A DNA stretch of 64,000 nucleotides from Octopus vulgaris (lineage: Eukaryota), in NCBI GenBank assembly GCA_951406725.2, contig OX597822.1, positions 19,716,001 to 19,780,000 of the forward strand, written 5' to 3'. Below the pieces are notes generated by a model. That model ran no database searches, was not told where the DNA came from, and saw nothing but the letters and a program-made list of their open reading frames with translations. Both the position numbers and the translations under genes were made by a program. Position 1 is the first letter of the stretch; each line of letters opens with the position of its first letter. Below, piece after piece: positions 6,817 through 25,060 of the stretch.

Positions 6817-7072
6817 TGCAGCGTTGAAGGTGTTTATAAGCCTTTTAGAAACACACAAAAACCGTTAGATTCACTTCAACATTTAAATTTAATTTGTCAA
6901 AATATTTTCATCGCTTTGAGACCGCGACCTGTTAGCACGATATTTTTGTCAGTGAACAGGTCACGGTCTCAAAGTGACGAAAATATTTTGGCAAATTAAA
7001 TTTAAATGTTGAAGTGAATGTAACGGTTTTTGTGTGTTTCTTAAATGGCTTACAAACACCTTCCACGCTGCA
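6817..7072. repeat. Imperfect inverted repeat (~116-bp arms, 21-bp spacer) of a PLE pLTR-like repeat
   Basis: 6817-6933 is the reverse complement of 6955-7072 with scattered substitutions. A third copy lies at ~17354-17490. Confidence 0.88.
6945..6995 (+). ncRNA. Candidate minimal type-I hammerhead ribozyme, G3-C8 variant
   Basis: UUUGUCA [GUGAACA] G GUCAC-ggucucaaa-GUGAC [GAAA] AUAU [UU] UGGCAAA. Helix I, helix II and a palindromic AAUAUU helix III. Confidence 0.6.
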
Positions 7073-7409
7073 ATATATATATACACACATATATATATAT
7101 GTATGTATGTATGTATGTGTGTATATGTGTATGCATGTATGTGTGTGTGTGTGCGTGTCTGTGCTTGTGATTGTCCTCCACGACTGCTTGACAACGAATG
7201 TTGGTTTGTTTACATCCCTGTCACCTAGTGGTTTGACAAAGGAAACAGATAGAATAAGTACAATGCTTACAAAAATAAAACGAGTTGATTCATTAAACTG
7301 CAATTCTTCAAGGCATTGCCCCAGCATGGCCACAGACCAATGGCTGGAAAAAGCAGAAGAATAAAAGAATACATTCTCTGCTTTGGTCTTATGTTCAAGG
7401 CATGAGAAA

Positions 7410-7892
7410 GCTTGAGTTTACATGAGAAGGCCTAACAGACCTGGTAGAAACAGCAGCCAAATCTCCCTCAAATCACACCTTACTGTCTTATGTATGTATA
7501 TATATATGAGCCAATGAGGGGGACCTCTACATGGTAGCTAGACCTGGTAGAAATAGCAGCCAAATTTCCCCCAAATCACACCTTACTGTCTTATCTATAT
7601 TTCCTGAGCGCCATACTAATACAATTGTTCGTTTGTTTTCCACCTGCCTTCGTCTTTTGTTTATTTTCATAAAGCTTCCCGTTATATATGTATGTATGAG
7701 CCTATGAGGGAGACCCCTACATGGCAGCTAGACCTGGTAGAAATAGCAGCCAAATTTCCCCCAAATCACACCTTACTGTCTTATCTATGTATATATGTAT
7801 GTATGAGCCTATGAGGGAGACCCCTACATGGCAGCTAGACATGGTAGAAATAGCAGCCAAATCTCCCTCAAATCACACCTTACTGTCTTATC
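7410..7892. repeat. ~107-bp minisatellite, about 4 copies with an ~90-bp interruption
   Basis: Repeated GAGCCTATGAGGGAGACCCCTACATGGCAGCTAGACCTGGTAGAAATAGCAGCCAAAT...CACACCTTACTGTCTTA. Confidence 0.85.
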
Positions 7893-8431
7893 TTTCTGCT
7901 ACTTGGATATAGGTGTTATATTCGTCGTAAAAAACTTTCCTGTCACACACTCACGCACACGCACACACACACACACACACACGCATCCTCACACACACAC
8001 GCGCACACCCACACACACCCACTCACACACACGCACGTTAGCTTACAATTTTATTTATATATTTGCGTGTCATGTGTGGAAAGAGGAAGTGGGAGGTAGA
8101 GTGAAAGAATCACTCACTACAGTAAGTCAATTACTTTCATTTTATTCGTTGCCCACTGTGTGTGTGCGTTTGCGTGTGGTGTAAACCAGACTAAGAAAAG
8201 CATTTGACACACACACCAGAATGTGAGTTTTCTGTAAATTTTGCTTAATTGGAATTTAAATTTTAAAAACTGGACCTGGCATGACGCGATGCATTGTACT
8301 CTTAAAAATGCAAGGTAAATTGTAATTGAAGAAATCCTATATTGTAGATTTGTATAACTCCCAAAGGGAGGCAGATAAAATCTGCCTTTTATAATAAGAT
8401 ATAATAAGAGATATATATATATATATATATA

Positions 8432-8890
8432 TGATGATGATAAATATCACTTTATAGCTGAATCACTACCAGAACTGGAGAAAAAATTCAGGAGTGGAAG
8501 CAAGTCCTCAGCATTAATTTAGCAAAAACCAAAATCTTAGTTAATAGGAAAACTGACAAATCACAAATCTCTCCAGGTAGATGGCCTTACTCTGTGTAGA
8601 AAAGGCATAGGTAGAAACTCTACAAGGTGTACCTGGAGCAAGCTATGGACACAAGATGTGCAGCAGTATCAGAGGAAGGTAATAGGGAAAATAGTCTTTA
8701 TGTGTGCAGATGTACAGGTACAATAAACACTAGAAATGTACAGAAAATAGACTCCATCAAATGCCAGGGGGAATACCTAGAAGTAGTTGGTAGTTCTTGT
8801 TATCTAGAGTAAGAATAGGCTGGGGAAAATTCAGATAGCTTCTACCTTTGTTGGTAACAAAGGGCCCCTCCCTCAAAGTGAAAGGCACTG
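8432..8890 (+). pseudogene. RTE/RTE-X LINE RT relic
   Basis: Broken translation with IAESLPELEKKFR, INLAKTKILV, CQGEYLEVVGSSCYL and LVTKGPSLKVKG. Confidence 0.6.
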
Positions 8891-21619: not shown

Positions 21620-22591
21620 TCAATCAGGTTGCCGGGTAGGTCTATAGTTCTTGTAGTTCGCATACTTCTTATGCATGCAATTTGGGGAGTGTTCTGAAAA
21701 TTTGTTAAGGAGAGGGCCTTTGGCGAACAAGATCTCTAGGCTCTCTGATATGCATAGGTCACAGCAGGTATGTCCTCCTGTGTACGAGCGCGCCTTCTGT
21801 AGTAGTTTCCACTTGGTCTTGAAGGGGATTGAGTTCCTTTTAAGGTACCAGATGTGGGCGGCGAGGGTAGTTTGGTTGGATTTATCCTGTCGCCGGAACG
21901 AGTGTGTGTGTGCGTACCAGCGGGTCTTAAAGCTGTTTGACGTCATTCCAATGTAGGATTTACTTTTATCGTCAAGGCCTGATCTTACCTCGCATTTATA
22001 TACTAGGTCCCTCTGTAGGCAGTTGTTGTTGAGGGGGCAGGTGGTTTTATCATGGCAGTTGCAACTGCTATCGGACGTTGGATGGGCCCCGGAGAAAATA
22101 GATATGTTAAGTTTTTTCACATTGTTGTTGGCTAGGTTCCTGGCTAGATTGGGCGTGGTAGAGTAGGAGAGTCTAATAGTGTTCTTATTTAGGATAGTGT
22201 AGTACTTATGTTGGGTGGGGAAGTGTTTCTGTAGGAGAGTGAAAAAGATCTTAGCTACAGGTGTAGCGACCTCACGGTTGAAGGGGGGTTGTACCAGCTA
22301 ATGTGTCTTCGTCTATTTTTCCTGGGTTGGCGTGGGGCTATACTAGTGTAGGTAATCTTATCTTTAAAACCACTGCGGGCCAGGGCCTCGTTGTAATAGG
22401 GGGCTGCGGCCTTAAAGATATCTTCCGTGGCGGACAGGCTAGAGATTCTAATTGAGACACTTTTTACTAGGTTATCTAATATATTTTTGGGGTGGTTGGA
22501 ATTGATATCTATATATCTAAGGGATTCATTTGGTTTGTGGTACGGGTAATAAAGTGAGGTTTTTAAGTCGAGGGTGACATCGAGGAAGTTA
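21620..22591 (-). pseudogene. PLE RT C-terminus plus GIY-YIG endonuclease, one frameshift near 22280
   Basis: NFLDVTLDL..YHKPN..YI..NSNHP, WYNPP, CNC..KTTCPL..NC..LVYKC, YIGMTSNSFKTRW..H, CDLCISE, LLNK.SE...CMH. Confidence 0.9.
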
Positions 22592-22872
22592 TCATTCATG
22601 CATAAAGGGGAAGTATACACCACATTGGCTACTTCTTCTGTTCTCTCAGTTCAGCCTTTCTGCTAATACTGACAGGTCAGTAAAAACATACTTAAAATAT
22701 TCTGAGATGTACAAAAAAGCCATTTTAATTTTTGCTGTCAAAACGCTGTATATATATACCAAAGATTGTATATATATACATGTAATGTGACAATTTGCGA
22801 CAACCAATAATTAACGCAACCAATTCCCAATAATATATTTGTTTTATCCTTTTCTGCCAAATTTTCCCAAAT

Positions 22873-23101
22873 AATGTGACAATTATGTATAAAAAAACAT
22901 TTTTGAATTCATAATATCCAATGTGACAATTATGTAAAAAACTTTTTTGAATGCATAATATTCAATGTGACAATTATGTAAAAAACTTTTTTTGAACCCA
23001 TAATATCCAATGTGACAATTATGTAAAAAACTTTTTTGAATGCATAATATTCAATGTGACAATTATGTAAAAAACTTTTTTTGAACCCATATTATTCAAT
23101 G
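22873..23101. repeat. 44-45-bp minisatellite x5 with alternating A/B units
   Basis: AATGTGACAATTATGTAAAAAACTTTTTTGAA(TG/CC)CATAATAT(T/C)C repeated. Confidence 0.9.
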
Positions 23102-23198
23102 TTTCCTTAAATGTAACTTTTGACAATCTTTTACCAAAGAGTGAAACCGGTTAAGTAAATAAACATCGTTTAAATTGCATTTTCAAACCTTTTTTCTT

Positions 23199-25060
23199 AT
23201 ATATATATATATATATATATATATATACATATATATATATACATATATATATACATATATATATATACATATATATATATATATATATATACATATATAT
23301 ATATACATATATATACATATATATATATATATATATATATATATATATATATATATATATATATATATATATATATATATATATATATACATATATATAT
23401 ATATATATATATATATATATATATATATATATATATATATATATATATATATATATATATATATATATATATATATATATATATATATATATATATATAT
23501 ATATATTGATTTGATTTGAAAACCCCACTAGATTGGGAGAAAGCGCTAATCCGAATGATATGATCTGAATGATATGATATATATGTAAAAAATGTAATAT
23601 ATAAATAAATATCTACAAATATGAACCATCTGATCTGATTACCTCATTTTTTCTAATATATAATACCTGTACATCATCTCCAAACCTTCCGATATATATA
23701 TATATATATATATATATCAATTTTTGCCCTTAATTTAATTATATATATATATATATATATATATATATATATATATATATATATATATATATATATATAT
23801 ATATACATATACATACATACATATATACACATACATACACATACATACATACATATATATATATATATATATACATACATACATATATATATATATATAT
23901 ATATATATATATATACATACATACATATGTATATATATATATACATACATATGTATATATATATATACATATATATATACATATGTATATATATATATAT
24001 ATATATACATATGTATATATATATATATATATATATATATATATATATATATATATATATATATATACATATATATATATATATATATATATATATATAT
24101 ATATATATATATATATATATATATATATATATATATATATATATATATATATATATATATATATATATATATATATATATATATATATATATATATATAT
24201 ATATATATATATATATATATATATATATATATATATATATATATATATATATATATATATATATATATATATATATATATATATATATATATATATATAT
24301 ATATATATATATATATATATATATATATATATATATATATATATATATTGATTTGATTTGAAAACCCCACTAGATTGGGAGAAAGCGCTAATCCGAATGA
24401 TATGATCTGAATGATATGATATATATGTAAAAAATGTAATATATAAATAAATATCTACAAATATGAACCATCTGATCTGATTACCTCATTTTTTCTAATA
24501 TATAATACCTGTACATCATCTCCAAACCTTCCGATATATATATATATATATATATCAATTTTTGCCCTTAATTTAATTATATATATATATATATATATAT
24601 ATATATATATATATATATATATATATATATATATATATATATATATATATATATATATATATATATATATACATACATATGTATATATATATATATATAT
24701 ATATATATATATATATATATATATATATATATATACATATGTATATATATATATATATATATATATATATATATATATATATATATATATATATATATAT
24801 ATATATATATATATATATATATATATATATATATATATATATATATATATATATATATATATATATATATATATATATATATATATATATATATATATAT
24901 ATATATATATATATATATATATATATACATACATATATATATATATATATATATATATATATATATATATATATATATATATATATATATATATATATAT
25001 ATATATATATATATATATATATATATATATATATATATATATATATATATATATATATAT
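23199..25060. repeat. Very long (TA)n field containing two tandem copies of the 185-bp mini-element (842-bp period)
   Basis: Unique blocks at 23507-23740 and 24349-24580, each followed by CAATTTTTGCCCTTAATTTAATT. Confidence 0.9.
23513..23551 (+). ncRNA. Candidate minimal hammerhead, U3-A8 variant (repeated at 24355-24393 and 18057-18095(-))
   Basis: GAU [UUGAAAA] C CCCA-cuagau-UGGG A [GAAA] GCGC [UA] AUC. Palindromic AGCGCU helix III, short helix I, C.A mismatch at the base of helix II. Confidence 0.45.

Follow-up and report, generated by a model that had tools for sequence, protein, structure and literature searches.

Why should three different Watson–Crick versions of a single hammerhead ribozyme base pair lie within roughly 18 kb of one another? 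A stretch of the Octopus vulgaris genome (assembly GCA_951406725.2, contig OX597822.1, positions 19,716,001 to 19,780,000; hereafter the window) carries hammerhead-like motifs in which nucleotides 3 and 8 form C3-G8, G3-C8 or U3-A8. The window spans 64,000 nucleotides (nt) of a 2.8-Gb genome, has 36% GC and is rich in (TA)n. An original prediction, made from the letters of the window, placed the motifs in unrelated repeats and proposed that the genome hosts a diversified set of non-canonical, ribozyme-bearing retroelements beside (TA)n tracts. We find that the cluster is a nest of ends of Penelope-like elements (PLEs), and that insertion into a shared (TA)n target accounts for the three pairs lying so near one another. 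The reading we favour, with a probability of about 0.75, is that the hammerhead folds lie in the pseudo-long terminal repeats (pLTRs) of three unrelated PLE families inserted in one (TA)n patch, and are likely to be weak self-cleaving ribozymes that would act as dimers and trim tandem transcripts. For the motifs of the window, ‘ribozyme’ is a prediction from sequence.

Complementary 3–8 pairs exceed the shuffled background

Every site named in the original prediction was recovered by sequence inspection and by a hammerhead descriptor in which positions 3 and 8 are unconstrained: G3-C8 cores (GUGAACA) at 6952 and 17371 on the forward strand, a C3-G8 core at 18313 on the reverse strand, and U3-A8 cores at 23516 and 24358 (forward) and 18092-18086 (reverse). 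A stem, GAAA, a short or palindromic helix III and UH follow the core at each of these sites, and the window motifs show the NUGANNA, GAAA and UH core around three helices that typifies minimal type I PLE hammerheads. The six sites do lie in unrelated elements, although they represent only three families (here called G, C and U after the nucleotide at position 3), the three U-family ends being identical over 187 nt. Another U3-A8 motif, at 23120, belongs to a different family and had been overlooked. The label ‘non-canonical’ suits only G3-C8, which is unusual. A C3-G8 core is canonical, U3-A8 has been published as a natural variant, and these two parts of the finding are ordinary.

The proposal that complementary 3–8 combinations exceed those of shuffled sequence holds both in the window and in a grid sample of 88 stretches of 10 kb (880 kb in total). 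All seven descriptor matches in the window (7/7) are Watson–Crick at 3-8, compared with 0.2 matches of any kind per shuffle (60 shuffles). In the 880-kb sample, 19 of 21 matches are Watson–Crick (12 C-G, 4 G-C, 2 U-A and 1 A-U), versus 4.6 matches and 1.3 Watson–Crick matches per shuffle (15 shuffles), the Watson–Crick share in shuffled sequence being about 29%. A stricter descriptor returns 11 of 11 complementary matches versus about one match per shuffle. Because the matches are copies of few families and hence are not independent of each other, the enrichment shows that real hammerhead-bearing repeats dominate, rather than 19 separate events.

These results bear on whether the motifs are chance matches in AT-rich, microsatellite-rich DNA that repeat copying has multiplied. 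Such an origin would fit the few families with non-independent copies, the matches that shuffles do yield, and the folding of the U and C motifs, which is no better than that of shuffles; only the G3-C8 motifs fold better (z = −3.2 and −2.2). However, each motif occupies the position expected of a PLE hammerhead, in three unrelated elements, complementary matches exceed those of shuffles (19/21 versus 1.3/4.6), and the pair covaries across related families. Chance is thereby largely refuted, and we consider it very improbable. Some individual hits are probably chance: two further G3-C8 matches (L223 and L177) and the match at window position 10550 are weak singletons. Of the 219 rows from an Rfam scan of the window, the 150 listed include no hammerhead, just microsatellite noise.

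The motifs end three unrelated Penelope-like elements

The motifs lie 20-130 nt before the 3′ ends of elements with reverse transcriptase (RT) and C-terminal GIY-YIG endonuclease frames. Direct pLTRs (L155 and L162) and adjacent inverted copies (L159, L161 and many short pairs) mark these as endonuclease-bearing (EN+) PLEs, and tails, inverted arms and (TA)n flanks are consistent with this assignment. The proposed retroelement set is thus borne out, with the refinement that its members are Penelope-like and sit in the (TA)n itself. Clade names below follow motifs described by Craig et al. 2021 (PMC8557442).

The G3-C8 motif has one extra G, a 5-bp stem II closed by G10.1-C11.1, GAAA, a palindromic AUAU (within the helix III palindrome AAUAUU), U16.1-U17 and a 7-bp helix I. 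At 17371 it lies about 1 kb behind a GIY-YIG frame, a linkage repeated in other G-family copies; the window element consists of a thumb and GIY-YIG open reading frame (ORF) at 15515-16366 (Pfam GIY-YIG, E = 5e-5) and a microsatellite-rich 3′ untranslated region (UTR) of about 1 kb. In L159, an open RT-endonuclease frame of 1,025 codons lies 1 kb upstream of the motif. The G protein matches Pfam GIY-YIG (E = 2e-5); its RT has no Pfam match but aligns to the U-family RT (E = 5e-8) and contains YVDD, and a PDB search with the protein gave 0 matches. A short linker (CQSNCAVC) accompanied by CC..HH agrees with the Neptune and Nematis motifs, a CX2-5CxxC linker and CCHH, of which the linker is reduced in Nematis. 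The tail, of the 30-40-nt kind, is an extension overlapping the 5′ start of the element. No ORF was found at L031, where three G-family ends lie in direct orientation.

When positions 3 and 8 are left unconstrained, a 20-letter G-family pattern has 7,612 matches in the genome (control 0), and 94 of 100 listed matches are G3-C8. (Letter tallies of pattern matches, here and below, were counted by eye among 100 matches listed for each pattern.) The pair is retained in two subfamilies that differ in loop II. Sequencing runs under four organism labels contain the G3-C8 motif, with no variant listed at position 3 or 8, so it is no assembly error. The A-U appearance of stem II in the 6952 copy is at least partly private CpG decay, judging by the family letter at 6975, which is C; the difference in stem II between 6952 and 17371 is therefore ruled out as covariation, at least one side being such decay. 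Three G-family ends with G3-A8 stand in direct repeat with 3.4-kb spacing at L361-L363 (G000:C2:171239231-171246122).

The C-family motif at 18313 has U-U at 10.1-11.1, a 3-bp stem II, a 3-bp helix III with an 8-nt loop and a 6-bp helix I. Its element carries RT thumb and endonuclease frames at 22650-21620 and a microsatellite-rich 3′ UTR of about 3.3 kb; the same 4.3-kb spacing at other loci shows that frames and motif belong to one element. The motif occurs in both pLTRs of L162 (5.7 kb apart) and L164, and C3-G8 is present in 38 of 38 covered copies. YRDD and YIG were read from the translation, which has no relevant Pfam match. L162 contains RWR, SDKT, CNCHDKTTC, CDLC and CMH, which agree with the Hydra-clade set of an RWK-like motif, DKT, a CxCX5C linker, no CCHH, and CxxC and CxH around E and N. 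Its length of about 5.7 kb between pLTR hammerheads, with a coding part of about 2.3 kb, differs from the length, generally <3 kb, given for the Hydra clade (PMC8557442), as a result of the 3.3-kb UTR. The 3′ UTRs in the window (16400-17340 in the G element, 18600-21560 in the C element) consist mostly of (CA)/(TACA) microsatellite that belongs to the element itself, and these elements thus seed microsatellites.

The U-family motif has C-A at 10.1-11.1, a 4-bp stem II, a palindromic GCGC (helix III palindrome AGCGCU) and just 3 bp of contiguous helix I. Full-length copies at L155 and L156 carry it in both pLTRs (5.2 kb apart in L155), and U3-A8 is found in 45 of 47 covered copies. The protein matches Pfam RVT_1 (E = 3e-10) and GIY-YIG (E = 4e-4), with a long linker (CGDGRCGTC) plus CC..HH, again as in Neptune and Nematis elements; by linker length only, we provisionally term the G family Nematis-like and the U family Neptune-like. 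The U tail shows in arms of unequal length: one spans 187 nt, and in 8 of 9 partner rows the inverted one spans 156 nt. A search for a U-family sister with C3-G8 led to rejection of that idea, as the five matches with a non-U at position 3 all have A8. A long U-family frame in another reading frame lies upstream of the RT frame at L155:1122-2387 (forward strand), which is unusual for single-ORF PLEs. Within the window, 23507-23713 and 24349-24555 share 207 identical letters between (TA)n tracts, exceeding the element end, which may reflect local tandem duplication or an assembly effect. A decayed Neptune-like remnant at 33964-34961 (forward strand) is about 30% identical to the U protein.

G3-C8 appears to be a natural compensatory swap

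A related-frame pattern without both G3 and C8 has 434 matches in the genome (control 2), which are older related families. The 100 listed comprise 52 C-G, 19 U-G, 13 C-A, 10 U-A, 3 A-U, 2 A-A and 1 U-U. A3-U8 was considered as a fourth permutation and rejected: the three listed matches are decayed G-family copies and the sole match in the 880-kb sample is in a microsatellite, so that no A3-U8 family appears among the pattern matches listed or in that sample. The largest sister family has C3-G8 in 30 of 33 copies among the loci examined, and one related family, in whose stem II T-A replaces C-G, has U3-A8; at 10.4-11.4, A-T is seen versus G-C. Among 23 loci, eight have a C3-G8 motif 95-760 nt behind an endonuclease remnant that is 39-50% identical to the G protein, and one has a U3-G8 motif behind such a remnant.

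A tree was built from thumb-endonuclease sequences in 21 rows, namely 20 loci plus L159 but not L331, L282, L319 or L254. With the U family as its root, the G family stands on a long branch as sister to the C3-G8 and U3-A8 related families (support 88). Since C3-G8 is canonical elsewhere, parsimony makes G3-C8 the derived state. Relatives that share this hammerhead frame have C3-G8 or U3-A8, and the comparison therefore points to the G-C swap as a natural compensatory change, with real covariation.

That C-G, U-A and G-C all occur within the Nematis-like lineage is what would be expected if one element family had rapidly diversified its own hammerhead core, for example through error-prone RNA steps, and so produced all three pairs. 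Against this, the window motifs reside in three elements with proteins that share no more than about 24-28% identity, and the pair is nearly fixed within each family. The distinct ORFs refute this origin for the window copies, and we give it next to no weight.

Unpaired G3-G8 copies in the G family

G-family context without C8 occurs at 298 places; the 100 listed have 45 U, 37 G and 18 A at position 8. At position 3, 157 G-family places lack G, the 100 listed having 58 A, 31 U and 11 C. Background changes at non-CpG C sites are 59 T, 24 A and 13 G (n = 96). G8 is therefore in excess (37/100 listed non-C8 versus 13/96 background C-to-G; p = 1.6e-4 and 2.5e-5), corresponding to about 80 surplus G3-G8 copies, or roughly 1% of the G family, in the older subfamily: all 36 listed G3-G8 rows carry the older loop II. 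In total, G3-G8 copies number about 110.

Both arms share G8 in 4 of 7 old-type inverted pairs, versus 21 of 130 for other rare letters (p = 0.02), or in 4 of 10 if a mixed pair of old and young type is added along with two short partners identified by eye. In descriptive terms, divergence is slightly higher for G8 copies (5.3%, n = 34, versus 3.7%, n = 31). No diagnostic sites separate G3-G8 from G3-C8 copies in about 130 nt.

The G3-G8 copies may represent a transposed intermediate, a side branch or a hotspot. The intermediate version holds that the genome preserves the full route of the swap, from C3-G8 sisters through catalytically crippled but retrotransposing G3-G8 elements (the surplus of about 80) to a takeover by G3-C8 in thousands of copies. 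Three observations count against it, namely that diagnostic sites linked to G8 are absent, that G8 is found on several haplotypes and that the G-family branch is long enough for a far older swap, and we regard this route as a tentative suggestion that is probably incorrect.

A slow but working core or a structural relic

By analogy with the published PLE hammerheads (PMC4209133), each motif would cut a tandem transcript after H17 (in the younger G copy, a cut is predicted after U17 at 17406), two copies completing helix III by pairing of its palindrome. Minimum-energy dimers form an intermolecular helix III for the U, C and 23120 motifs. Selection on master elements would keep a Watson–Crick 3-8 pair rather than particular letters, and lineages would have switched from C-G to U-A by two transitions and, once, to G-C by two transversions. 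Cleavage would be low and maybe not essential in every round of retrotransposition. The G3-C8 core is predicted to be slow but working because the engineered C3G/G8C change partly rescues cleavage, including in the Anolis Poseidon PLE hammerhead (PMC11167929, PMC8495972). Pairing of G3 with C17 is reported to hold a G3-C8 core back (PMC3884650), and the U17 of the G family avoids it.

Several observations weigh against self-cleavage. The minimum-energy two-copy fold of the G motif has no intermolecular helix III and pairs G3 with U17. The U motif combines a closing mismatch (C-A or G-A) with its 3-bp helix I, and the motifs other than G3-C8 have folding z-scores of −0.1 to +1.3 relative to shuffles. 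Just 1 of 27 truncated G-family copies without position 3 begins at the predicted cut, and a 5′ truncation hotspot, present in all runs examined, lies about 22 nt upstream of the G core (window positions 17348 and 6944) and not at the cut site. High copy number is amplification of few masters, not per-copy selection. The G3-G8 copies seem to have been copied, and for a lizard PLE, insertion in vitro was not impaired when the hammerhead was mutated (PMC11167929).

The absent footprint, the hotspot directly 5′ of the fold, the G3-G8 excess and the dispensability of cleavage in another PLE in vitro would also suit a dead or near-dead relic whose structure is retained for another role (protein binding, packaging or RT arrest), with its pair maintained for folding or fixed by drift in one master. 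Yet the rest of the core is unchanged in families whose proteins have diverged by about 55%, two transversions would hardly re-create precisely the tertiary pair unless the active fold were under selection, and the engineered swap is partly active. We judge such a relic unlikely, and prefer weak, dimer-acting ribozymes.

Relation to known hammerheads and elements

The pLTR hammerheads of metazoan PLEs have been published (Cervera and de la Peña 2014, PMC4209133), with an extra nucleotide after A9, G10.1-C11.1 and a palindromic helix III as their marks. The motifs described here share with them the place in the pLTR, type I topology and a small palindromic helix III, as well as the many families per genome and a U3-A8 variant (about 1,300 matches in Schistosoma). 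The extra nucleotide between 9 and 10.1 and G10.1-C11.1 are present in the G family; the C and 23120 motifs have U-U, and U has C-A or G-A. G3-C8 makes the G family a less canonical member of the minimal type I PLE hammerheads, without lowering the case that it works like one. U3-A8 covariation, a U10.1-U11.1 closing mismatch and U4C are natural variants (Perreault et al. 2011, PMC3088659).

Unlike the G family, the part of the PMC4209133 supplement alignment that was examined has C3-G8, two U3-A8 and one U3-G8 with no G3-C8 row, and the text section on core variants in PMC3088659 does not name G3-C8. The descriptors of PMC4209133 fixed C3-G8 or U3-A8 and would miss it. The core change is the same as in engineered C3G/G8C (PMC11167929, PMC8495972, PMC3884650), there a laboratory mutant and here the form that predominates in a family numbering thousands of copies. 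Full-text literature searches, the supplement part and passages of PMC6765202 and PMC11014351 yielded no natural G3-C8; an earlier description may exist. In the literature searched, G3-C8 is found only as a partly active rescue mutant, and its natural fixed form appears new.

The elements share with the Hydra, Neptune and Nematis EN+ PLEs (PMC8557442) a C-terminal GIY-YIG, pLTRs, inverted 5′ pieces, a 30-40-nt tail, a (TA)n preference and clade motifs. They differ from non-LTR retrozymes, which are non-coding tandem hammerhead units (bioRxiv 10.64898/2026.07.22.740005), in that the motifs end coding PLEs.

Other features of the window

The 23120 motif (Table 1) has U-U at 10.1-11.1 and the helix III palindrome ACCGGU; short tandem repeats (22873-23102) precede it within 22650-23197, where it forms the 3′ end of a further repeat family, and no ORF is linked to it. 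The degenerate CCGAAGA form placed at 35799 is indeed a degenerate copy, but its core begins at 35804, its C4 is the commoner family letter (9 of 15 copies), and the true damage is A15.1 to G. The U4 copies of this family are perhaps CpG decay products, and the master may carry the U4C variant. The family has seven matches in the 880-kb sample (L188, L199, L214, L222, L224, L235 and L249) and no linked ORF; an inverted partial twin of the window copy lies at 36132-36186.

A 270-nt inverted repeat (14596-14865 and 25194-25463, 99.6% identical) brackets the entire nest of PLE ends. Non-LTR retrotransposon frames (RVT_1, zf-RVT) with long (AAT)n tracts at their flanks occupy 28741-30849 and about 32000-33111 on the forward strand. 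On the reverse strand, 43098-45092 is a broken non-LTR reverse transcriptase, which we take to be RTE-like, and 58548-60381 contains GC-rich broken frames, one with DUF7047, that resemble an LTR-type element.

Table 1 Hammerhead motifs and element ends in the window
Positions	Strand	Feature	Basis
6816..6933	-	Inverted partial copy of G-family 3′ end, without core positions 3-5	Self-BLAST, sequence
6934..7072	+	Short G-family 3′ end, older subfamily, with inverted partner	Self-BLAST, subfamily comparison
6945..6995	+	Type I minimal hammerhead motif, G3-C8; G3 = 6952	Descriptor
15515..17490	+	5′-truncated Nematis-like PLE (G family)	GIY-YIG Pfam match; same linkage in other copies
17364..17413	+	Type I minimal hammerhead motif, G3-C8, younger subfamily; G3 = 17371, C8 = 17376	Descriptor, folding
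17915..18101	-	U-family 3′ end and 31-nt tail; U3-A8 motif 18095-18057, U3 = 18092	Self-BLAST, sequence
18250..22650	-	5′-truncated Hydra-like PLE (C family)	ORFs; same layout at other loci
18269..18319	-	Type I hammerhead motif, canonical C3-G8; C3 = 18313, U-U at 10.1-11.1	Descriptor
23116..23156	+	Second U3-A8 hammerhead-like motif, other repeat family; U3 = 23120	Descriptor; relative in L210
23507..23693	+	Neptune-like U-family 3′ end and tail; U3-A8 motif 23513-23551	Sequence, other copies
24349..24535	+	Identical duplicate U-family end; U3-A8 motif 24355-24393	Self-BLAST, sequence
35799..35836	+	Degenerate member (A15.1 to G) of an abundant minimal hammerhead family with C3-G8, C4 common	Descriptor, sequence

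Implications

Standard descriptors that fix C3-G8 or U3-A8 cannot see a G3-C8 family, even one with thousands of copies, and ribozyme surveys of animal retroelements are therefore likely to be undercounts. If the full swap route through G3-G8 were true, the genome would hold a natural record of an RNA catalyst crossing a fitness valley, and hammerhead cleavage would help PLE mobility but not be required for it. The G3-C8 family, the G3-G8 copies and the relatives that bear C3-G8 or U3-A8 on a shared scaffold form a natural series for asking how important cleavage rate is to the element.

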